In this document: piece after piece, positions 9,332 through 62,177 of the stretch
Layout: each line of letters begins with the position of its first letter
Position numbering within the stretch: the first letter of the stretch is position 1
Sequence record: OY720014
Source: Escherichia phage vB_Eco_QOTSP
DNA: 64,000 nt
Reading direction: 5' to 3' (one strand)
Notes under the pieces: generated by a model
What the model was told of the DNA's origin: nothing
Seen by the model: only the letters and a program-made list of their open reading frames with translations
Database searches by the model: none
Made by a program: the position numbers and the translations under genes

Positions 9332-9405
9332 CAATGATTCTTTATGCTAAAGTACTACCTTATAGGAATGATATTGCTTAAATTAATATTGAGGTAGCTG
9401 AGACT

Positions 9406-9786
9406 ATGAAATTAATTAAATCGGGTGGAACCAGATGGGTACTACTAACACGTAAGTATGCTATTAAGTTCCCTATCCCCAAGACATGGAAACACTTCGT
9501 GCAGGGTATGCTCAGCAATCTTACAGAAGGTCAGTGGAAGGGGTATGATAACAAGCACCTATGCCCAATAGCATACTCAAACAGATTTGGTCTCATGGTT
9601 GTGATGCACAAAGCAGAGCCAGTTGAGGATAAGGAGCTTTTTAAATCTGATTTGCAAAAGCTCTATAATGATGTTGATGGTGATGAATGCAGAACGCTTG
9701 ACCGTGATTTCTTTGAGTATGATGCCTTTCCAAAGAACTTTGGCTACTACAAAGGTAGATTGGTCAAGATAGACTACGGAGTGTGA
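9406..9786 (+). CDS. hypothetical protein on an inserted, higher-GC cassette (126 aa)
   Basis: ORF with own GAGG RBS; codon usage visibly more G/C-rich than neighbours; flanked by direct repeats at about 9328-9354 and 9783-9809. Confidence 0.55.
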   Translation: MKLIKSGGTRWVLLTRKYAIKFPIPKTWKHFVQGMLSNLTEGQWKGYDNKHLCPIAYSNRFGLMVVMHKAEPVEDKELFKSDLQKLYNDVDGDECRTLDRDFFEYDAFPKNFGYYKGRLVKIDYGV

Positions 9787-10762: not shown

Positions 10763-10835
10763 TGGGAATTAGCCAAGTTGGTAAGGCACTGGATTTTGAT
10801 TCCAGGATGCAAAGGTTCGAGTCCTTTATTCCCAG
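10763..10835 (+). tRNA. tRNA-Gln (anticodon UUG); no encoded CCA
   Basis: Cloverleaf by eye: acceptor TGGGAAT/ATTCCCA, anticodon stem CTGGA/TCCAG, loop TTTTGAT, T-loop GGTTCGAGTCC. Confidence 0.8.
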
Positions 10836-10836
10836 C

Positions 10837-10923
10837 GCGAGAATGGTCAAATTGGTAAAGGCACAGCACTTAAAATGCTGCGGAATGATTTCCTTGTGGG
10901 TTCGAGTCCCACTTCTCGCACCA
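10837..10923 (+). tRNA. tRNA-Leu (anticodon UAA), long variable arm
   Basis: Acceptor GCGAGAA/TTCTCGC, anticodon loop CTTAAAA, long variable arm, encoded CCA. Confidence 0.8.
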
Positions 10924-10928
10924 AATTT

Positions 10929-11002
<74 letters not shown>

Positions 11003-11048
11003 ATTTATGACTCGTCGTGAGACGCTCAGTTCTTTATTAGGGACTGAT

Positions 11049-11657
11049 ATGCATTTTTATCTTTATAAAATAACAAATAAAATTAATAATAAAATTTATA
11101 TTGGTGTGCATTCTACCGAAAATTTAGATGATGGATATATGGGTTCTGGTAAATTATTAAAAAGAGCCCAAGATAAATATGGTATAGAAAATTTTTCTAA
11201 AGAAATATTAGAGTATTTTGACGATAAAGAATCTATGCTTGAAGCCGAGAAAAATATTGTCACAGAAGAGTTTTTAAATAGACCAGATGTGTATAATTTA
11301 AAACTTGGAGGTGAAGGTGGATGGGATCATATAAATAATTATCCTATGACAGATCAGCAACGCGAATTAATTTCATTGGGTGTTAAAAAGGCGCATTCTA
11401 ACGGAAAATTAAAAGGATGGTCTTCAAATGGATTAATGAAGAATGGCTTTGCTGGTAAAACTCATTCTCAAGAAGCTAAACGTAAAATAGCAAAAGCAAA
11501 CGAAGCAAAAGTTTCTGCGGATGAAAGAAAAAGAAGAATAGAAATTTCTAAATTATATGATTTTTCTAAACGTGGCGAATTGTCTAAATATGCTAAGCAT
11601 ATTGGCGTAAGTCATACTCAAGCAAAAAGAATTCTAAATCAAATTAACAATATATAA
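11049..11657 (+). mobile_element. segB: GIY-YIG homing endonuclease (SegB-like) inside the tRNA cluster
   Basis: N-terminal FYLYKITNKINNKIYIGV GIY-YIG motif and basic C-terminal DNA-binding region; splits the tRNA genes; track ORF begins at 11007, ATG at 11049 preferred. Confidence 0.8.
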
Positions 11658-11663
11658 ATATTT

Positions 11664-11753
11664 GGAGGCGTGGCAGAGTGGTTTAATGCACCGGTCTTGA
11701 AAACCGGCAGTCGCTCCGGCGACTCATAGGTTCAAATCCTATCGCCTCCGCCA
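11664..11753 (+). tRNA. tRNA-Ser (anticodon UGA), long variable arm
   Basis: Acceptor GGAGGCG/CGCCTCC, anticodon stem CCGGT/ACCGG with loop CTTGAAA, encoded CCA. Confidence 0.8.
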
Positions 11754-11759
11754 GTTTTT

Positions 11760-11835
11760 GCTGATTTAGCTCAGTAGGTAGAGCACCTCACTTGTAATGA
11801 GGACGTCGGCGGTTCGATTCCGTCAATCAGCACCA
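11760..11835 (+). tRNA. tRNA-Thr (anticodon UGU)
   Basis: Acceptor GCTGATT/AATCAGC, anticodon stem CCTCA/TGAGG with loop CTTGTAA, encoded CCA. Confidence 0.8.
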
Positions 11836-11836
11836 A

Positions 11837-11911
11837 GGCCCTGTAGCTGGAAGGTTCAAGCAAGCGACTCATAATCGCCAGATGGTGGTTCAATTCCACC
11901 CAGGGCCACCA
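11837..11911 (+). tRNA. tRNA with CAU anticodon (Ile, lysidine-type as in T4, or Met)
   Basis: Acceptor GGCCCTG/CAGGGCC, anticodon loop CTCATAA, T-arm GGTGG/CCACC, encoded CCA. Confidence 0.7.
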
Positions 11912-11920
11912 AATTAATTT

Positions 11921-12007
11921 GGGGAGTTATCCCGTAGAGGTAGCGGTGTGGACTGTAAATTCATTGTCATTGCGACTCGGGTGGTTCGACTCCACCACTC
12001 CCCACCA
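11921..12007 (+). tRNA. class-II tRNA-like gene, candidate tRNA-Tyr (anticodon GUA)
   Basis: Acceptor GGGGAGT/ACTCCCC, anticodon loop CTGTAAA, long variable arm, T-arm GGTGG TTCGACT CCACC, CCA; anticodon stem has two G-U pairs. Confidence 0.55.
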
Positions 12008-12011
12008 ATTT

Positions 12012-12086
12012 GGATGTGTAGCTCAATGGCAGAGCGATCGCCTGTTAAGCGATTGGTTATAGGTTCGAATCCTATCACGTCCGCCA
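12012..12086 (+). tRNA. tRNA-Asn (anticodon GUU)
   Basis: Acceptor GGATGTG/CACGTCC, D-stem GCTC/GAGC, anticodon stem ATCGC/GCGAT with loop CTGTTAA, encoded CCA. Confidence 0.7.
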
Positions 12087-12200
12087 AATTTGTGACAACT
12101 GTCACATTAATATCTACTTGACGCGATTATAGGGGTTGAACTGATCACTCTTCTCTTAATTTCGTGTGAAGACATCTTGATTGTTGGAGTAGGTATTAAT

Positions 12201-12276
12201 GTGGCCGTAGTTCAGTTGGTAGAACTCGAGATTGTGATTCTCGTAGTCATGGGTTCGACTCCCATCGGTCACCCCA
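12201..12276 (+). tRNA. tRNA-His (anticodon GUG)
   Basis: Acceptor GTGGCCG/CGGTCAC, anticodon stem CGAGA/TCTCG with loop TTGTGAT, discriminator C, CCA. Confidence 0.7.
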
Positions 12277-12280
12277 ATTA

Positions 12281-12356
12281 CGGGGCATAGCTCAGAAGGA
12301 AGAGCAAGGACCTTCTAAGTCCTAGGTCGTAGGTTCGATCCCTACTGCCTCGACCA
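12281..12356 (+). tRNA. tRNA-Arg (anticodon UCU)
   Basis: Acceptor CGGGGCA/TGCCTCG, anticodon stem AGGAC/GTCCT with loop CTTCTAA, encoded CCA. Confidence 0.75.
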
Positions 12357-18443: not shown

Positions 18444-18917
18444 ATGAAAACATATCAAGAATTTATCGCTGAAGCAGCTATTAATTCTCAAATTATTGCT
18501 GAATCTTTTACTGATCTTTTGAAATTTAAAAAAGGTCAAAAAATCACTGCTGTATTGGATGATGGTACAGAAGTTGAGATGGATGTACAGGGATATAATT
18601 ATGCAGTAGATGGAAAACTGTATAATAAATCTCATGCTAAATTTGATTCATTTGACGACTTTGTTAATACAGTTGAAGATGAAAAAACTCGTAGATCCAT
18701 TGCAACTGGTGATGCTAAGGTTCTTATGGCACATGGTCATGAACGCATTCGCGCTAAACAGAATAAAATGGGTGAAGATAATTTCGCATTAGTTGGTTAT
18801 CAATCTGGTAAACAAACTTATGGCTATCAACGTACTGCTACCATGTATAATAAAAATGGTAAAATTGCCTTTGTGAATAGTAAAGGTTCTATTCAGTACG
18901 TTAAATCGTTCAAATAA
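18444..18917 (+). CDS. internal-protein-like protein with canonical capsid-targeting sequence (157 aa)
   Basis: Starts MKTYQEFIAEA exactly as T4 internal proteins; located beside denV. Confidence 0.6.
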   Translation: MKTYQEFIAEAAINSQIIAESFTDLLKFKKGQKITAVLDDGTEVEMDVQGYNYAVDGKLYNKSHAKFDSFDDFVNTVEDEKTRRSIATGDAKVLMAHGHERIRAKQNKMGEDNFALVGYQSGKQTYGYQRTATMYNKNGKIAFVNSKGSIQYVKSFK

Positions 18918-19058
18918 TATGGGAACAACCTGGACCTCATGATTCTATGAGGGATTCCCGCCAACCTGTAATAAGGTCGAGCCTGAGTGCGGTAATGGGT
19001 AAATACAGAAATGGACAATTCATGCGCCACGGAATGGCCCAAATTTAGAGAGAATAAA

Positions 19059-19598
19059 ATGAGAACATTTTTAACTGGTCCTTATCTATCCCTGATGAAT
19101 GCTTTTACACACCATTCTGACGCTAGAGTAGAAGAAATTTGTAAAAACGAATATATCCCGCCATTTGAAGAATTACTTAAACAGTACTGCACACTTCGTA
19201 TAGATGGTGGACGTCAATCCGGTAAATCAATTGCTGTGACTAACTTTGCTGCTAATTGGTTGTATGATGGCGGAACAGTTATTGTTCTTTCTAATACTTC
19301 AGCTTACGCTAAAATTTCTGCAAATAACATTAAAAAGGAATTTTCGCGTTATTCTAATGATGATATACGTTTTCGTTTATTTACTGATTCTGTGCGCAGT
19401 TTTATTGGTAATAAAGGAAGCAAGTTCAGAGGTTTATCGCTTTCGCGAATTTTGTATATAATTGATGAGCCTGTCAAATCTCCTGATATGGATAAGATTT
19501 ATAGCGTCCATATTGACACTGTACACTACTGCTGTAATAGTAAATGTTGCATTGGTGGTATTACTCGTCCACAGTTTTTCGTAATCGGAATGCAATAA
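19059..19598 (+). CDS. small P-loop NTPase-like protein (about 180 aa)
   Basis: Walker A-like GGRQSGKS and Walker B-like ILYIIDEP; internal ATG of track ORF 19011. Confidence 0.45.
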   Translation: MRTFLTGPYLSLMNAFTHHSDARVEEICKNEYIPPFEELLKQYCTLRIDGGRQSGKSIAVTNFAANWLYDGGTVIVLSNTSAYAKISANNIKKEFSRYSNDDIRFRLFTDSVRSFIGNKGSKFRGLSLSRILYIIDEPVKSPDMDKIYSVHIDTVHYCCNSKCCIGGITRPQFFVIGMQ

Positions 19599-19924
19599 TG
19601 ACAGACACACAGCTTTTCGAATATCTCTATTTTTCGCCAAAAACTATTAAAAATAAATTGGTAAATCATTTTGAAATTTTGGCAAATAACAACATTTTAA
19701 GCGAATTTTATCCCAAGCAATACAAATTACAAAAAGGCGTATTCAAAGGATGCAGAGTTTTGTGCACTGCTCCTAACGCGCAGTTAATGAATAAAATTCC
19801 ATATTTTACCATGGAATTTATTGATGGACCTTTTAAAGGACTAATCACCCAAAGTTTAATGGCATATGATTCTGAGCCATTTTTAATTAAAGAACAATCT
19901 TGGATAAATTTATTTTCTAATTGA
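19598..19924 (+). CDS. hypothetical protein (108 aa)
   Basis: TAATG stop/start overlap with the upstream gene. Confidence 0.45.
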
Positions 19925-19931
19925 GGTTTAT

Positions 19932-20294
19932 ATGAAAGCATATCAAATTCTTGAAGGCACACATAAAGGTACTATTTATTTTGAAGATGGTATTCAAGCA
20001 CGAATTATTGTCTCTAAAACCTTTAAAGAGGACTCTTTTGTAGACCCGGAAATTTTCTACGGTTTGCATGCCCGTGAAATTGAAATTGAAACACAACCTA
20101 CAGTTAAAATTGAAGGTGGTCAACACCTGAACGTTAACGTTCTGCGTCGCGAAACTCTGGAAGATGCAGTTAAGCATCCGGAAAAATATCCGCAGCTGAC
20201 CATCCGTGTATCCGGTTATGCAGTTCGCTTTAACTCTCTGACTCCGGAACAGCAGCGCGACGTTATCGCTCGTACCTTTACTGAGAGTTTGTAA
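19932..20294 (+). CDS. GrcA/YfiD-like autonomous glycyl-radical cofactor protein (120 aa)
   Basis: C-terminal ~60 aa carry the glycyl-radical motif RVSGYAV and match E. coli GrcA as I recall it; that part of the DNA is GC-rich with host-like codons. Confidence 0.8.
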
Positions 20295-20515
20295 TGGCAA
20301 AGATAATTATTGAAGGTTCTAAAGATGTGCTAAATGCTTTCGCCGAGTGGTTTAGTAATTCAGGCGAACAGCAATTTAACGAAGCCTGGAATATGGGTGA
20401 TATTGATGGAATTTATCCTACGACAGAAATTTCTGTTCAAGGATATGGCATTCATGAACCTATTCGTTTAGTTGAATATGATTTATGTACTGGTGAGGAA
20501 GTCAAATATGATTGA
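20294..20515 (+). CDS. hypothetical protein (73 aa)
   Basis: ORF overlapping the GrcA-like stop (TAATGG). Confidence 0.45.
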   Translation: MAKIIIEGSKDVLNAFAEWFSNSGEQQFNEAWNMGDIDGIYPTTEISVQGYGIHEPIRLVEYDLCTGEEVKYD

Positions 20516-20774
20516 AGATATTAAAGGTTATAAGCCACATACCGACGAAAAAATCGGTAAAGTAAATGCTATTAAAGACGCTGAAGTTCGTTTAGGACTT
20601 ATCTTTGATGCTTTATACGATGAATTTTGGGAAGCATTTGATAGCTGTGAAGATGATGAACTCGCGAAGAATTATGCCGAAAGCCTCGATCAGTTAACTA
20701 TTGCTAAAACGAAACTCAAAGAAGCCAGTATGTGGGCTTGTCGTGCAGTGTTCCAACCAGAGGAAAAATACTAA
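20508..20774 (+). CDS. hypothetical protein (88 aa)
   Basis: ATG after GAGGAA RBS; internal start of track ORF 20472. Confidence 0.45.
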
Positions 20775-21052
20775 TGGCTCAATTAAGTGCAGGGTTTGGT
20801 TATGAGTATTATACTGCACCTCGTCGTGTATCTGCCGCTCCTAAGAAAATTCAAAGTCTTGATGACTTCCAGGAAGTAGTCCGTAAAGCTTTCCAGGACT
20901 ATGCACGTTATCTTAAAGAAGATTCACAGGACTGTCTCGAAGAAGATGAAATTGCTTACTATGAGCAGCGTCTTGAACAGCTTAAAAACTTACATGAGGT
21001 TCGTGCAGAAGTTTCAAAGTCTATGAATAAATTGATTAGATTTAAAGAATAA
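20774..21052 (+). CDS. hypothetical small helical protein (92 aa)
   Basis: ATG after GAGGAAAAATACTA; lies in the vs/regB neighbourhood. Confidence 0.45.
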
Positions 21053-21054
21053 CT

Positions 21055-21086
21055 GTTTACTTTTCCTCTTGACTGTGGTATAATTT
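21055..21086 (+). promoter_or_regulatory. early promoter (PeSL-type)
   Basis: GTTTAC -35, TATAAT -10 enclosed by inverted repeat CCTCTTGACTG...CAGTTAAGAGG. Confidence 0.6.
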
Positions 21087-21111
21087 TTCTATCAGTTAAG
21101 AGGAGAACAAC

Positions 21112-21573
21112 ATGACTATCAATACAGAAGTTTTTATCCGTCGAAATAAGCTTCGTCGTCACTTTGAGTCGGAGTTTCGTCAAATTAACAATGAGATTCG
21201 TGAGGCATCAAAAGCAGCAGGAGTCTCATCGTTTCATCTAAAATATTCTCAACATCTTCTTGATCGTGCAATTCAACGGGAGATTGATGAGACATATGTT
21301 TTTGAATTATTCCATAAAATAAAAGACCATGTTTTAGAAGTTAATGAATTCCTGAGTATGCCTCCGCGTCCTGACATTGATGAGGATTTTATTGATGGGG
21401 TTGAATATCGTCCTGGACGTTTAGAAATCACAGATGGAAATCTTTGGCTTGGATTTACAGTTTGTAAGCCTAATGAGAAGTTCAAAAACCCGTCACTTCA
21501 ATGCAGGATGGCAATTATCAACAGTCGTCGTTTACCAGGAAAGGCTTCTAAAGCAGTAATTAAAACTCAATGA
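21112..21573 (+). CDS. regB: RegB site-specific endoribonuclease (153 aa)
   Basis: MTINTEVFIRRNKLRRHFESEFRQ... essentially identical to T4 RegB. Confidence 0.92.
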   Translation: MTINTEVFIRRNKLRRHFESEFRQINNEIREASKAAGVSSFHLKYSQHLLDRAIQREIDETYVFELFHKIKDHVLEVNEFLSMPPRPDIDEDFIDGVEYRPGRLEITDGNLWLGFTVCKPNEKFKNPSLQCRMAIINSRRLPGKASKAVIKTQ

Positions 21574-37647: not shown

Positions 37648-38121
37648 ATGTTATTGACTGGCAAATTATATAAAGAAGAAAAACAAAAATTTTATGATGC
37701 ACAAAACGGTAAATGCTTAATTTGCCAACGAGAACTAAATCCTGATGTTCAAGCTAATCACCTCGATCATGACCATGAATTAAATGGACCAAAAGCAGGA
37801 AAGGTACGTGGATTGCTTTGTAATCTCTGCAATGCTGCAGAAGGTCAAATGAAACATAAATTTAATCGCTCTGGTTTAAAGGGACAAGGCGTTGATTATC
37901 TTGAATGGTTAGAAAATTTACTTACTTATTTAAAATCCGATTACACCCAAAATAATATTCACCCTAACTTTGTTGGAGATAAATCAAAGGAATTTTCTCG
38001 TTTAGGAAAAGAGGAAATGATGGCCGAGATGCTTCAAAGAGGATTTGAATATAATGAATCTGACACCAAAACACAGTTAATAGCTTCATTTAAGAAGCAG
38101 CTTAGAAAGAGTTTAAAATGA
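37648..38121 (+). CDS. 49: endonuclease VII, Holliday-junction resolvase (157 aa)
   Basis: Zinc-binding CLICQ...CNLCN; 157 aa; matches T4 gp49. Confidence 0.9.
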   Translation: MLLTGKLYKEEKQKFYDAQNGKCLICQRELNPDVQANHLDHDHELNGPKAGKVRGLLCNLCNAAEGQMKHKFNRSGLKGQGVDYLEWLENLLTYLKSDYTQNNIHPNFVGDKSKEFSRLGKEEMMAEMLQRGFEYNESDTKTQLIASFKKQLRKSLK

Positions 38122-39935
38122 CAATTGAAAAAGAAATTGAAGGATTGATTCATAAAACTAATAAAGACCTTTTAAACGAGAATGCTAATAAAGATTCTCG
38201 TGTTTTTCCAACTCAACGGGACCTTATGGCTGGTATTGTGTCTAAACACATTGCCAAAAATATGGTCCCGTCTTTTATTATGAAAGCGCATGAAAGCGGA
38301 ATTATCCATTTCCATGATATTGATTATTCCCCTGCTCTTCCATTTACTAATTGCTGTTTAGTAGATTTAAAAGGAATGCTTGAGAACGGATTTAAGCTTG
38401 GTAATGCGCAGATTGAAACTCCTAAATCAATCGGTGTTGCTACTGCAATTATGGCACAAATTACTGCGCAAGTTGCTTCCCATCAATACGGCGGAACGAC
38501 TTTTGCTAATGTAGATAAAGTACTTTCTCCTTATGTTAAACGCACCTATGCAAAACATATTGAGGATGCAGAAAAATGGCAAATCGCTGATGCGTTGAAT
38601 TATGCTCAATCTAAAACAGAAAAAGACGTATACGATGCATTCCAAGCTTATGAATATGAAGTAAATACTCTCTTTAGTTCAAACGGGCAAACACCTTTTG
38701 TAACAATTACATTTGGTACGGGAACTGACTGGACTGAACGAATGATTCAGAAAGCAATTCTGAAAAATCGTATTAAAGGTCTCGGTCGTGATGGGATAAC
38801 TCCTATTTTTCCTAAGCTTGTTATGTTCGTCGAAGAAGGCGTTAATCTTTACAAAGACGATCCGAGCTATGATATTAAGCTGCTTGCTCTAGAGTGTGCA
38901 AGCAAAAGGATGTATCCTGATATTATTTCAGCTAAGAACAATAAAGCTATTACTGGTTCATCTGTTCCTGTTTCTCCAATGGGTTGCCGTAGTTTCTTGA
39001 GCGTATGGAAAGATTCGACTGGTAATGAAATTCTTGATGGACGTAATAATCTTGGTGTTGTAACACTGAATCTTCCTCGTATTGCATTAGATTCTTATAT
39101 TGGAACACAGTTCAATGAACAGAAATTTGTTGAATTGTTCAATGAACGAATGGATTTGTGTTTTGAAGCTTTGATGTGTAGAATTAGTTCCTTAAAAGGA
39201 GTTAAAGCGACTGTTGCTCCTATTCTTTACCAAGAAGGTGCATTTGGGGTTCGTCTTAAACCTGATGACGACATAATTGAGTTATTTAAAAACGGTAGAA
39301 GTTCAGTGTCTTTAGGATACATTGGTATTCACGAATTGAATATTCTTGTCGGTCGTGATATTGGACAAGAAATTTTAACTAAAATGAATGCCCATCTTAA
39401 ACAGTGGACTGAAAGAACCGGATTTGCTTTTAGTTTATATTCGACTCCTGCTGAAAACCTTTGTTATCGCTTCTGTAAACTTGATACAGAAAAATATGGA
39501 AGTGTAAAAGATGTTACCGATAAAGGCTGGTACACTAACAGTTTCCATGTTTCAGTAGAAGAAAATATTACTCCGTTTGAAAAGATTTCTCGTGAAGCGC
39601 CATATCATTTCATTGCGACAGGTGGTCACATTTCTTATGTTGAACTTCCTGATATGAAAAATAACCTAAAAGGTCTTGAGGCTGTATGGGATTATGCTGC
39701 ACAACATTTAGATTATTTTGGTGTTAACATGCCGGTAGATAAATGTTTTACATGCGGAAGTACCCATGAAATGACTCCTACTGAAAACGGATTTGTTTGT
39801 TCTATTTGTGGAGAAACTGATCCTAAAAAGATGAACACAATAAGAAGAACATGTGGTTATTTGGGAAATCCGAACGAACGCGGATTTAATCTCGGTAAAA
39901 ATAAAGAAATCATGCATAGGGTTAAACACCAATGA
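38118..39935 (+). CDS. nrdD: anaerobic ribonucleotide reductase NrdD (605 aa), uninterrupted
   Basis: 605 aa continuous ORF with C-terminal zinc Cys cluster and glycyl-radical region; no intron. Confidence 0.92.
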   Translation: MTIEKEIEGLIHKTNKDLLNENANKDSRVFPTQRDLMAGIVSKHIAKNMVPSFIMKAHESGIIHFHDIDYSPALPFTNCCLVDLKGMLENGFKLGNAQIETPKSIGVATAIMAQITAQVASHQYGGTTFANVDKVLSPYVKRTYAKHIEDAEKWQIADALNYAQSKTEKDVYDAFQAYEYEVNTLFSSNGQTPFVTITFGTGTDWTERMIQKAILKNRIKGLGRDGITPIFPKLVMFVEEGVNLYKDDPSYDIKLLALECASKRMYPDIISAKNNKAITGSSVPVSPMGCRSFLSVWKDSTGNEILDGRNNLGVVTLNLPRIALDSYIGTQFNEQKFVELFNERMDLCFEALMCRISSLKGVKATVAPILYQEGAFGVRLKPDDDIIELFKNGRSSVSLGYIGIHELNILVGRDIGQEILTKMNAHLKQWTERTGFAFSLYSTPAENLCYRFCKLDTEKYGSVKDVTDKGWYTNSFHVSVEENITPFEKISREAPYHFIATGGHISYVELPDMKNNLKGLEAVWDYAAQHLDYFGVNMPVDKCFTCGSTHEMTPTENGFVCSICGETDPKKMNTIRRTCGYLGNPNERGFNLGKNKEIMHRVKHQ

Positions 39936-40402
39936 ATTATGATAGATTTTATCCTTGCGATTTTGTGAATGGCCCTGGTTGCAGGGTCGTTCTTTTCGTT
40001 ACAGGTTGTTTGCATAAATGCGAAGGGTGTTATAATAAATCAACATGGAATGCTAGAAATGGTATTCCATTCACTGGTGAAACACTAGAACAATTAATTG
40101 AATGTTTGAATAATGATTATATAGAAGGATTAACTATAACTGGAGGAGACCCTCTCTATCCTGATAATCGAGATGTTATTCATTGCATTGTTCAAACAGT
40201 AAAAAATCTTTATCCCAATAAAAGCATTTGGTTGTGGACAGGATATAAATTTGAAGATATTAAACAACTAGAAATGCTTAAATATGTTGATGTTATTATT
40301 GATGGGAAGTATGATAAAAATCTTCCGACCAAAAAGCTGTGGAGAGGATCAGATAATCAGCGGCTTTGGTCAAATACCGATGGGGTGTGGAAACATGATT
40401 AA
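39932..40402 (+). CDS. nrdG: anaerobic RNR activase NrdG, radical SAM (156 aa)
   Basis: CxxxCxxC radical-SAM motif (CLHKCEGC); overlaps nrdD stop. Confidence 0.9.
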   Translation: MNYDRFYPCDFVNGPGCRVVLFVTGCLHKCEGCYNKSTWNARNGIPFTGETLEQLIECLNNDYIEGLTITGGDPLYPDNRDVIHCIVQTVKNLYPNKSIWLWTGYKFEDIKQLEMLKYVDVIIDGKYDKNLPTKKLWRGSDNQRLWSNTDGVWKHD

Positions 40403-47593: not shown

Positions 47594-49278
47594 AGAATTT
47601 TAAACTAAATCGAGTTAGGTATCAAAATATAATGTCAGTAGGTGGAAATCCTATTGACATTCAATTAGATAAGGTTCAAAAAACTCTTATTACTGGACGA
47701 AATGGCGGTGGTAAGTCTACTATGTTAGAAGCCATCACATTTGGGCTTTTTGGCAAGCCATTCCGTGATGTAAAGAAAGGTCAATTAATAAACAGCACAA
47801 ATAAGAAAGAACTTTTAGTTGAACTGTGGATGGAATATGATGAGAAAAAGTACTATATCAAAAGAGGACAAAAACCAAACGTTTTCGAAATCACCGTTAA
47901 CGGTACACGTCTTAATGAATCTGCCAGCAGTAAAGATTTCCAAGCAGAATTTGAACAGCTTATCGGAATGTCATATGCCAGTTTCAAGCAGATTGTTGTC
48001 CTTGGTACAGCAGGGTATACCCCTTTCATGGGTTTGTCGACCCCTGCGCGAAGAAAGCTCGTGGAAGACCTGCTCGAGGTAGGAACATTAGCTGAAATGG
48101 ATAAGCTTAATAAAGCACTAATACGTGAATTAAATTCACAAAACCAAGTGCTTGATGTTAAAAAAGATAGTATTATCCAACAAATTAAAATATATAATGA
48201 TAACGTTGAACGCCAGAAAAAATTAACGGGTGACAACCTTACTCGTCTTCAAAATATGTATGATGATTTGGCAAAAGAAGCTAGAACGCTAAAATCGGAA
48301 ATAGAAGAAGCTAATGAAAGATTAGTTAATATTGTTTTAGATGAAGACCCGACTGATGCATTTAATAAAATCGGTCAAGAAGCAGTTTTAATTAAATCAA
48401 AAATTGACTCGTATAATAAAGTCATTAATATGTATCACGAAGGTGGATTATGTCCAACCTGCTTGTCACAATTAAGTTCCGGTGATAAAGTTGTTTCTAA
48501 AATTAAAGATAAAGTTTCTGAATGTACGCATTCGTTTGAACAGCTTTCAACACATCGTGATAATTTAAAAGTTCTTGTTGATGAATACCGAGATAATATT
48601 AAAACCCAGCAGTCGTTGGCAAATGATATTCGCAATAAAAAGCAATCTCTAATCACGACGGTAGATAAAGCTAAAAAAGTTAAAGCAGCTATAGAAAAAG
48701 CATCTTCTGAGTTTATTGACCATGCTGATGAAATAGCACTGCTTCAAGAAGAACTTGATAAAATTGTTAAGACAAAAACTAATTTAGTAATGGAAAAATA
48801 CCACCGAGGAATTTTGACTGATATGCTCAAAGATTCTGGTATTAAAGGTGCTATTATTAAAAAGTACATTCCATTATTTAATAAGCAGATTAACCATTAT
48901 CTTAAAATAATGGAAGCGGATTATGTGTTTACATTAGATGAAGAATTTAATGAGACAATTAAATCCCGTGGTCGTGAAGATTTTAGTTATGCTTCATTCA
49001 GTCAAGGTGAAAAAGCGCGAATTGATATTGCTCTTTTATTTACTTGGCGTGATATTGCTGAAAAAGTTTCAGGTGTTAAAATAAGTTGTTTATTTCTTGA
49101 TGAAGTGTATGACGGTGCATTTGATGCTGAAGGTATTAAAAATGTAGCTAAAATTTTAGATGGTTTGAAGGATACCAACTTCTTCATAATTTCACATAAA
49201 GACCATGACCCACAAGAATATGGTCAGCATATTCAGATGGAAAAAGTTGGTAGATTTAGTTTAGCTAAGATTAGCTAA
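47590..49278 (+). CDS. 46: gp46 recombination ATPase subunit (Rad50/SbcC-like), 562 aa
   Basis: Walker A GRNGGGKST, central coiled coil with CPTC zinc hook, C-terminal signature/Walker B; GTG start. Confidence 0.92.
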   Translation: MKNFKLNRVRYQNIMSVGGNPIDIQLDKVQKTLITGRNGGGKSTMLEAITFGLFGKPFRDVKKGQLINSTNKKELLVELWMEYDEKKYYIKRGQKPNVFEITVNGTRLNESASSKDFQAEFEQLIGMSYASFKQIVVLGTAGYTPFMGLSTPARRKLVEDLLEVGTLAEMDKLNKALIRELNSQNQVLDVKKDSIIQQIKIYNDNVERQKKLTGDNLTRLQNMYDDLAKEARTLKSEIEEANERLVNIVLDEDPTDAFNKIGQEAVLIKSKIDSYNKVINMYHEGGLCPTCLSQLSSGDKVVSKIKDKVSECTHSFEQLSTHRDNLKVLVDEYRDNIKTQQSLANDIRNKKQSLITTVDKAKKVKAAIEKASSEFIDHADEIALLQEELDKIVKTKTNLVMEKYHRGILTDMLKDSGIKGAIIKKYIPLFNKQINHYLKIMEADYVFTLDEEFNETIKSRGREDFSYASFSQGEKARIDIALLFTWRDIAEKVSGVKISCLFLDEVYDGAFDAEGIKNVAKILDGLKDTNFFIISHKDHDPQEYGQHIQMEKVGRFSLAKIS

Positions 49279-60749: not shown

Positions 60750-62177
60750 GTGGTAGAAATTATTCTTTCTCATCTCATATTTGATCAAGCTTATTTTTCA
60801 AAAGTTTGGCCATATATGGATTCAGAATATTTTGAAAGTGGTCCAGCTAAAAATACATTCAAATTAATTAAATCTCATGTTAATGAGTATCATAGCGTTC
60901 CATCTATTAATGCGTTAAATGTTGCATTAGAAAATAGTTCATTTACTGAAACAGAATATTCTGGTGTAAAAACACTTATTTCAAAACTGGCTGATTCTCC
61001 AGAAGACCACAGCTGGTTAGTAAAAGAAACAGAAAAATATGTTCAGCAAAGGGCGATGTTTAATGCTACGTCTAAAATAATCGAAATTCAAACTAATGCT
61101 GAGCTTCCTCCGGAAAAACGAAATAAGAAAATGCCAGATGTAGGTGCTATTCCTGACATCATGCGCCAAGCATTATCAATTTCATTTGATAGCTACGTTG
61201 GTCATGATTGGATGGATGACTATGAAGCGCGTTGGCTATCTTATATGAATAAAGCTCGTAAGGTTCCATTTAAACTCAGAATTCTAAACAAAATTACTAA
61301 AGGCGGAGCTGAAACTGGAACACTGAACGTTTTAATGGCTGGCGTTAACGTTGGTAAATCATTAGGATTGTGTTCATTAGCGGCAGATTATTTACAGCTC
61401 GGACATAATGTTCTTTACATTTCCATGGAAATGGCAGAAGAAGTCTGTGCTAAGCGTATTGACGCTAACATGCTTGATGTTTCTCTTGATGACATTGATG
61501 ATGGGCATATTTCTTACGCTGAGTATAAAGGAAAAATGGAAAAATGGCGCGAGAAATCTACTCTCGGTCGTTTAATCGTTAAACAGTATCCTACTGGTGG
61601 AGCAGATGCTAATACATTTCGATCACTTTTAAACGAATTGAAGCTTAAGAAGAATTTTGTTCCAACAATCATTATTGTCGACTATCTGGGTATTTGTAAA
61701 TCTTGCCGCATTAGAGTTTATTCAGAAAATAGTTACACAACTGTTAAAGCTATTGCAGAGGAATTGCGTGCTCTTGCTGTTGAAACCGAAACTGTTCTTT
61801 GGACTGCAGCACAGGTTGGTAAACAAGCTTGGGACTCTTCCGATGTTAACATGAGCGATATTGCAGAATCTGCCGGTCTTCCAGCAACAGCCGATTTTAT
61901 GCTTGCGGTCATTGAAACCGAGGAGTTAGCAGCTGCTGAACAACAACTCATTAAGCAAATCAAATCACGATATGGTGATAAAAATAAATGGAATAAGTTT
62001 TTGATGGGTGTTCAAAAGGGAAATCAGAAATGGGTAGAAATCGAACAAGATTCTACTCCAACTGAAGTGAGTGAAGTAGCAGGTTCACAACAGATTCAGG
62101 CTGAGCAGAATCGCTATCAAAGAAATGAATCCACTCGAGCTCAGTTAGATGCTTTGGCGAATGAATTAAAATTTTAG
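60750..62177 (+). CDS. 41: gp41 replicative DNA helicase, DnaB family (475 aa)
   Basis: 475 aa, GTG start after GGAG; Walker A GVNVGKS. Confidence 0.97.
   Translation: MVEIILSHLIFDQAYFSKVWPYMDSEYFESGPAKNTFKLIKSHVNEYHSVPSINALNVALENSSFTETEYSGVKTLISKLADSPEDHSWLVKETEKYVQQRAMFNATSKIIEIQTNAELPPEKRNKKMPDVGAIPDIMRQALSISFDSYVGHDWMDDYEARWLSYMNKARKVPFKLRILNKITKGGAETGTLNVLMAGVNVGKSLGLCSLAADYLQLGHNVLYISMEMAEEVCAKRIDANMLDVSLDDIDDGHISYAEYKGKMEKWREKSTLGRLIVKQYPTGGADANTFRSLLNELKLKKNFVPTIIIVDYLGICKSCRIRVYSENSYTTVKAIAEELRALAVETETVLWTAAQVGKQAWDSSDVNMSDIAESAGLPATADFMLAVIETEELAAAEQQLIKQIKSRYGDKNKWNKFLMGVQKGNQKWVEIEQDSTPTEVSEVAGSQQIQAEQNRYQRNESTRAQLDALANELKF

Follow-up and report, generated by a model that had tools for sequence, protein, structure and literature searches.

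The open reading frame at positions 19932-20294 (+) of the window, by which we mean the whole stretch of 64,000 nucleotides that was analysed, raises the question of how one small phage gene comes to consist of a phage-like 5' half and a 3' half that reads like grcA of Escherichia coli, and what its product would do in the infected cell. The frame is intact and encodes 120 amino acids. The source phage is a Tequatrovirus, and on the sequence evidence the gene is classed as the orthologue of T4 vs.6, with a product (Y06I) of the type of a phage-encoded, GrcA-like autonomous glycyl radical cofactor. Gene and biochemical role are already known from T4, and the window holds no new kind of system. 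We consider it highly likely that a Y06I-type cofactor, a mosaic drawn from host grcA and recurrent conversion of the 3' half together form one explanation of the locus.

The gene and its setting

The encoded protein is identical to T4 Vs.6 in 119 of 120 residues, and the DNA is 98.3% identical to T4 and 99.4% to RB51 and wV7. In a profile search, PHROG 1209 (phrog_1209) matched over the full length (residues 1-120, 5.4e-63), which, together with the place between vs.7 and vs.5, defines the T4 vs.6 orthologue group. The order vs.8-vs.7-vs.6-vs.5-vs.4 is common to the window, T4, RB51 and RB69, with synteny extending to AV117, and the surrounding block of the window corresponds to denV, vs.8, vs.7, vs.6, vs.5, vs.4, vs.3 and regB of T4. 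At the megablast level vs.6 was matched in 756 phage records. Nolan et al. (2006, PMC1524935) counted it among eleven ORFs kept in all T4-like genomes examined; identity with the host gene goes unmentioned there.

The gene is tightly packed between its neighbours. A candidate Shine-Dalgarno motif, GAGG (19923-19926, +), read from the sequence at consensus level, lies 5 nt before the ATG and overlaps the TGA stop of the upstream vs.7 homologue (19544-19924), while the TAA stop of vs.6 overlaps the ATG of the vs.5 homologue (20294-20296). A scan for sigma-70 promoters and terminators across 18800-21200 found 7 promoter-like sites where 8.6 would be expected. The second gene downstream of vs.6, the vs.4 homologue (about 20508-20774, +; ORF listed as 20472-20774) matches the Acb2/Tad1 hairpin domain (Pfam PF24729, 1.4e-19) and thus belongs to the anti-CBASS cyclic-nucleotide sponge family.

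The initial annotation had described the frame as a GrcA/YfiD-like glycyl radical spare part, which is borne out by a Pfam Gly_radical match (PF01228, 2.2e-18, 67.2 bits, cutoff 22.2) and by a C-terminus whose last 60 residues are exactly those of E. coli GrcA. The product shares with the GrcA/YfiD family (TIGR04365, IPR011140) its small stand-alone form with a C-terminal glycyl radical domain, the duplication of the C-terminus of pyruvate formate-lyase (PFL), and the radical glycine of the RVSGY motif, which is intact as predicted: it is Gly95, encoded by the GGT codon at 20214-20216 (+), and it aligns with the glycines of GrcA (PDB 6OWR) and PFL (PDB 1CM5/1H16). We take Gly95, partly from established knowledge of PFL, to be the equivalent of GrcA G102 and PflB G734, the radical-bearing glycine. 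The whole-protein score on the NCBIfam GrcA equivalog model TIGR04365 (154.6 bits, E = 1.4e-45, residues 20-120) falls below the 170-bit cutoff, compared with 234 bits for E. coli GrcA itself, because the N-terminus has diverged.

A 3' half identical to host grcA

The gene falls into three parts. Its phage-type 5' half (19932-20109, +; residues 1-59) is AT-rich and only distantly related to the GrcA N-terminus: of 40 residues aligned with GrcA residues 28-67, about 13 are the same. In YfiD its counterpart is the disordered region 1-60. The 5' half is followed by a patch (20110-20284, +; residues about 60-118) that covers the glycyl radical domain and is identical to the K-12-type allele of grcA at 175 of 175 consecutive bases. 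The last 10 nt (20285-20294, +) are phage-specific, GAGAGTTTGTAA in the window vs GAAAGCCTGTAA in the host, and differ from K-12 grcA at three synonymous positions. These differences (GAGAGTTTG vs GAAAGCCTG) could be read as forming a Shine-Dalgarno sequence for vs.5; as a general explanation this was rejected because T4T has A at 20285, as the host does.

A maximum chi-square analysis placed the breakpoint at 20110, with 79/178 bases (44%) identical to grcA upstream and 182/185 (98.4%) downstream (Fisher p = 4e-35). Among complete E. coli genomes, the 3' half was matched in 5426 of 5426 (95-99% over 185 nt), and the 175-nt patch at 100% in roughly a fifth of the E. coli rows sampled. The shift in composition foreseen by the initial annotation, a GC-rich, host-like 3' half behind an AT-rich 5' half, occurs at the same place: GC rises from 0.33 in the 5' half to 0.50 in the patch (window mean 0.349), a value reached by only 0.5% of the 175-nt windows in the 64 kb, and GC3 from 0.20 to 0.47, the long ORFs having a mean of about 0.24 and only 0.7% of their 58-codon windows reaching the patch value. 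In megablast searches of window positions 1-25000 and 39001-64000, nothing but the patch matched E. coli chromosomes. An abrupt change in identity, a shift in composition and a donor allele at 100% are the marks of a gene-conversion mosaic, and a host origin of the 3' half, for which an alignment with grcA had been proposed as the check, is upheld.

Other compositional features of the window may be recorded at this point. Its main GC-rich island is a cluster of 10 tRNA genes at 10763-12356 (+) (Gln, Leu, Gly, Ser, Thr, Met/Ile-CAU, Tyr, Asn, His, Arg), of which a 101.8-kb plasmid of E. coli O111:H8 (NZ_CP077546.1) matches the tRNA-Tyr region (11918-12010) at 88% identity. Further stretches rich in GC or GC3 lie at about 9405-9670 (+), by synteny with RB51 the region of an Ip5-like internal head protein, and at 47920-48094 and 61764-61938; none of these three gave a megablast match in E. 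coli genomes.

Conservation of the protein would be the simplest reason for such identity. However, homologues with the same C-terminal amino acids diverge in their DNA: three phage homologues (L013-L015) are only 83% identical, and grcA of Citrobacter, whose C-terminal protein is identical, differs at 15 of 175 nt (dS 0.42-0.53). Protein constraint therefore does not explain the identity of the patch. The 5' half is itself under purifying selection (dN/dS about 0.2 vs RB69 and 0.15 vs PSE-D1).

That the mosaic arose from contaminating host reads or from a chimeric assembly, a possibility of a general kind, can be given practically no weight, as about 640 phage genomes that were sequenced independently have the same mosaic at identities of at least 95%, among them the T4 record X04567.1 of the Sanger era, and the junction lies in frame within an intact, conserved ORF. 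Sequence identity alone does not give the direction of transfer, and the 3' half of the bacterial gene might in principle have come from phage DNA. This is rendered very improbable by the composition of the patch, which is host-like in the window (GC3 0.47) and in Klebsiella phages (0.54-0.62), as opposed to a phage GC3 of about 0.24. The bacterial gene, moreover, is uniform in composition over its whole length, including a 5' half absent from phages, and occupies a conserved chromosomal context with ung upstream (annotated in E. coli, recognised by eye in Klebsiella-like contigs) and eamB or srmB downstream. In 80 species its divergence follows the taxonomy of the bacteria, and each phage patch matches the species-typical allele. 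Composition, chromosomal context and taxonomy-tracking divergence thus point to transfer from host to phage.

One acquisition or recurrent conversion

Once the direction is settled in favour of the host as donor, the question becomes whether the patch was taken up once or many times. The initial annotation had suggested a recent recombination with host grcA; the breakpoint and the low synonymous divergence of the patch agree with this, with the amendment that conversion appears to have been recurrent and not one event. By the Nei-Gojobori method, the Tequatrovirus T4 was compared at synonymous sites with the Mosigviruses RB69 or AV117. In the genes around vs.6 (vs.8, vs.7, vs.5, vs.4 and regB) dS is 0.8 to >2, in the 5' half of vs.6 it is 0.27-0.40 and in the 3' half 0.05-0.12, and a sliding identity profile has the same pattern. 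Relative to its flanks the patch is thus far younger than the split of these phage genera.

The leading alternative is a single old acquisition, in which one ancestral T-even phage took up the 3' half of grcA once, the patch being maintained thereafter by constraint and by vertical or phage-to-phage inheritance. All E. coli-type alleles of Tequatrovirus and Mosigvirus indeed have the same 5' junction, AAAA|TTGAAGG, and a similar 3' end; the dS of the 5' half, being lower than that of the flanks, is compatible with a lateral spread of the whole gene; and some Tequatrovirus patches have drifted to 96-97% identity with the K-12-type patch of the window, from which it follows that conversion is not continuous in every lineage. 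An old patch is nevertheless difficult to reconcile with a dS of 0.05-0.12 between genera whose flanks stand at 0.8 to >2, the more so since amino-acid-identical homologues elsewhere are only 83-91% identical in DNA.

Within the constant outer limits, the inner differences among the E. coli-type phage alleles mirror E. coli polymorphism, with phage alleles at 20123, 20150 and 20213 coinciding with alleles that segregate in the bacterium. Position 20150 is C in the window, in contig L002 and in RB69, as in K-12, and T in T4T, RB51 and AV117, as in most E. coli, so that both alleles are present in both phage genera. In T4T, 178 nt agree fully with another of the common E. coli alleles, and this tract ends at 20287, 3 nt further than in the window. 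AV117 (Mosigvirus) and contig L005 of the T4/RB69-like group combine T20150 with A20213, an allele that 485 E. coli genomes carry with at most one mismatch; at 20123, L002 shares G with O157; and at 20213, Escherichia phage vB-Eco-KMB39 (KMB39) shares T with Escherichia sp. MOD1-EC7003. Among about 58 synonymous positions, 3 of the 9 phage-variable sites coincide with the 5 E. coli-variable sites (hypergeometric p about 0.02), a count subject to ascertainment in that some of the E. coli alleles were found by searching with the phage alleles. The evidence for recurrence in the E. coli phages is accordingly to be regarded as suggestive, and part of the allele pattern could be due to mutations that arose in parallel or to the passage of one ancestral patch between phages. 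Tequatroviruses isolated on Yersinia, Salmonella or Citrobacter have retained the E. coli-type patch, which means that the tracking of the host is imperfect.

Three irregular copies of vs.6 were also encountered. In KMB39 (L229, locus 301-718) a 55-nt tandem duplication (AGTTAAAATTGAAGG...GAAACT) lies exactly across the 5' junction of the host patch and splits vs.6 into two annotated ORFs; it may be a recombination footprint or an assembly error. Salmonella phage Lv5cm (L230, locus 1038-1563) has a 163-nt tandem duplication comprising the ribosome-binding site and the 5' part of vs.6, and an IMG/VR contig (L027) has a 1-nt frameshift in the 5' half.

The Klebsiella phages of the genus Jiaodavirus bear most directly on the number of events. 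In their vs.6 genes, GC3 climbs from 0.19-0.25 in the 5' half to 0.54-0.62 in the 3' half, which encodes the Klebsiella-type residues LLDAVEH. A pattern scan of metagenomes yielded two phage contigs and 45 grcA loci of bacteria, the latter on contigs of up to 1 Mb with typical chromosomal flanks. Phage contig L185 carries a host-identical tract of 158 nt (gene positions 181-338); the matching allele occurs on 21 contigs and is 100% identical to grcA of K. pneumoniae, a species label that rests on a 100% match to the PLSDB record NZ_CP093490.1. Phage VMC02 shares 164 nt (181-344) with a different, K. pneumoniae-like allele, that of locus L183, which is 96% identical to K. pneumoniae grcA. The allele of loci L176/L189, closest to Raoultella, is matched over 155 nt (190-344) by phage contig L180 and over 115 nt (230-344) by phage ATCCa. 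Best matches are reciprocal: ATCCa agrees with the Raoultella-like allele at 168 of 175 positions and with K. pneumoniae at 157, and for phage PSE-D1 the relation is reversed. The Jiaodavirus haplotypes differ from one another at 11-16 of 175 sites in the patch vs only 4-10 of 178 in the 5' halves. When these patches were compared with 80 GTDB host loci, a set from which K. pneumoniae was absent, the best donors were only 90-94% identical.

Thus, independent events in different phage lineages with different donors are what the Jiaodavirus tracts of 155-164 nt display, and these tracts make a strong case, at the level of sequence comparison, for separate conversion events. A single old acquisition would have to accommodate three haplotypes that are each identical over 155-164 nt to the allele of a different bacterial species, as well as tract starts that differ (gene position 181 vs 190 or later); taken together with the divergence and polymorphism data, this makes it unlikely.

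Some records used in the donor comparisons have peculiarities of their own. Several PLSDB 'plasmid' records, CP125156.1, NZ_OL790696.1 and NZ_CP141089.1 among them, measure 4-5.4 Mb and are evidently chromosomes; a contig labelled Vagococcus sp. WN89Y has an Enterobacteriaceae-type grcA, which suggests mislabelling or contamination; and grcA of K. aerogenes NCTC10006 has an indel and a truncated CDS annotation.

Outside the converted lineages, the T4-like contigs L008-L012 have a phage-type 3' half (GC3 0.28 in L008) that is 74-79% identical to E. coli grcA and plausibly represents the unconverted state. In a sample of 80 IMG/VR contigs, other phage GrcA homologues, whose contigs measure about 104-122 kb, about 180 kb or 345-357 kb, showed no host-identical tract, and their identity to the closest of the 81 host grcA genes in the comparison was no more than 70-84%. 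A further group of IMG/VR contigs (L020-L025 and L032, 32-154 kb) encodes 130-residue GrcA homologues in which EYREV... upstream of the radical domain and NPDKYPQ within it resemble Pasteurellaceae GrcA; the best DNA match is Haemophilus grcA (81-83%), and L022 contains one stretch of 53 nt without a difference. Phages of hosts other than enterobacteria may thus also carry host-related GrcA alleles.

All this can be rationalized if the 3' half of vs.6 is, as we think probable, a hotspot at which gene conversion from host to phage recurs and is still going on in strictly lytic phages of the T-even type (Tequatrovirus, Mosigvirus, Jiaodavirus), with a patch that tracks the recent host and an N-terminal half that is never overwritten. 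The radical domain of the ancestral phage gene would already have been GrcA-like, with a DNA identity of about 75-80% to the host gene. We infer that host DNA fragments present in infection would invade the homologous segment of the phage gene, presumably by means of a recombination machinery, and that the heteroduplex would extend until homology stops, its two limits being the beginning of the radical domain and the stop codon; in the N-terminal half the divergence is too great for recombination. A lineage that has gained a host tract would then have perfect homology, and later conversions would be easier, which is proposed as the reason why the outer limits are constant and the inner alleles variable. 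Each lineage would thereby repeatedly overwrite some 155-178 bp with the grcA allele of the bacterium in which it recently grew.

A survey of the searchable literature, exclusive of the T4 genome review and the original 2001 paper, yielded nothing that connects grcA, vs.6 or Y06I with horizontal transfer or recombination. Earlier authors may have remarked on the mosaic at the nucleotide level, for instance Miller 2003 (the T4 genome review), Mosig 2001 or Bowman 2019. The proposal of recurrent host-templated conversion of the radical domain is modestly novel, well supported and easily testable. A virulent phage that recombines with the host chromosome at a defined 175-bp target would offer a clean, datable case, with donor alleles resolvable to the species and even to the allele within a species, and the grcA/vs.6 pair would provide a simple assay for host-to-phage gene flow. 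If the proposal is true, the patch holds the radical domain in agreement with the host and preserves a trace of the recent host species or allele, such that it may serve as a marker of the recent natural host of a phage lineage. The split into a host-matched radical domain and a phage-specific N-terminal half could also serve the study of spare-part control.

Function and closest known systems

According to PMC8683613, which reports the work of Wagner et al. 2001 (Knappe group), the PFL activating enzyme installs a glycyl radical on YfiD and T4 Y06I alike, and each of the two combines with oxygen-cleaved PFL into a complex in which activity is restored; the C-terminus of YfiD is described there as a duplicate of the PFL C-terminus, and its disordered region 1-60 as necessary for radical installation. 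The structural matches of the protein encoded in the window agree with such a role. The best solved structure is E. coli GrcA (6OWR, 4.6e-42), followed by PFL residues 697-759 (4.8e-26), with which residues 58-120 align over 63 residues. During infection at low oxygen, the host activase PflA would install the radical on Gly95, the C-terminal domain would dock onto PFL that oxygen has cleaved at Gly734, and the restored PFL activity would sustain acetyl-CoA and formate metabolism for phage production. These three steps come from the literature on T4 Y06I and YfiD and are extended to the source phage by the 99% identity to Y06I; PFL repair is the best-supported function on that basis.

A different partner had been considered in the initial annotation, namely the anaerobic ribonucleotide reductase NrdD of the phage, the protein acting as its spare part after activation by phage NrdG. 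The two genes are present as had been stated, nrdD at 38118-39935 and nrdG at 39932-40402, about 18 kb downstream of vs.6 in the same genome. A role of vs.6 in nucleotide metabolism has been speculated upon (Nolan et al. 2006, PMC1524935), as has, in PMC8683613, the repair of other glycyl radical enzymes by members of the GrcA family. The C-terminal likeness to the glycyl radical domain of NrdD that such a spare part should possess is, however, absent: a BLASTP comparison of the window's NrdD with the vs.6 product gave E = 3.9, i.e. no detectable similarity, and NrdD does not figure among 33 solved-structure matches (E <= 1e-3), a set in which PFL 697-759 aligns over the length given above. 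The C-terminal domain is, furthermore, copied from host grcA, whose documented partner is PFL. Since Vs.6 and NrdD have no detectable similarity, the rescue of phage NrdD finds no support, and we regard it as very unlikely, the repair of host PFL being the preferred reading.

Among known systems the closest is T4 Vs.6 (Y06I, early name ORF 63.1), which shares with the gene of the window the mosaic junction and the neighbours vs.8, vs.7, vs.5, vs.4, vs.3 and regB in addition to the protein and DNA identities given above. It differs in residue 54, which is T here and P in T4T, and in the E. coli allele from which the patch derives (20150 C here and T in T4T; 20285 G here and A in T4T). E. coli GrcA (YfiD, 6OWR), likewise a small stand-alone protein, has in common the C-terminal 60 residues, the 175 nt and the RVSGY motif, whereas the N-terminal half is only about one-third identical over 40 alignable residues and residues 1-21 are unaligned; the phage protein is 7 residues shorter and is encoded by an AT-rich gene in a phage early-gene block. 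The glycyl radical domain of PflB (1CM5, 1H16, 2PFL) is likened to residues 58-120 by the alignment with PFL 697-759, the very segment that a spare part must replace. In contrast to PflB, the phage protein is devoid of the catalytic barrel and the Cys418/419 site, and it can therefore act only in a complex with damaged PFL.

With regard to the mosaic, the nearest parallel is found in the photosystem genes psbA and psbD of cyanophages, for which intragenic recombination between host and phage and mosaic GC patches were reportedly described by Zeidner in 2005 and Sullivan in 2006. There, too, a lytic phage carries its own copy of a host metabolic gene with sharply bounded segments of the host type. 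In vs.6, on the other hand, only the C-terminal domain is exchanged, in a tract of about 155-178 nt, while the remainder of the gene is too diverged to recombine, and the donors can be identified at 100%, to the species or to the allele.
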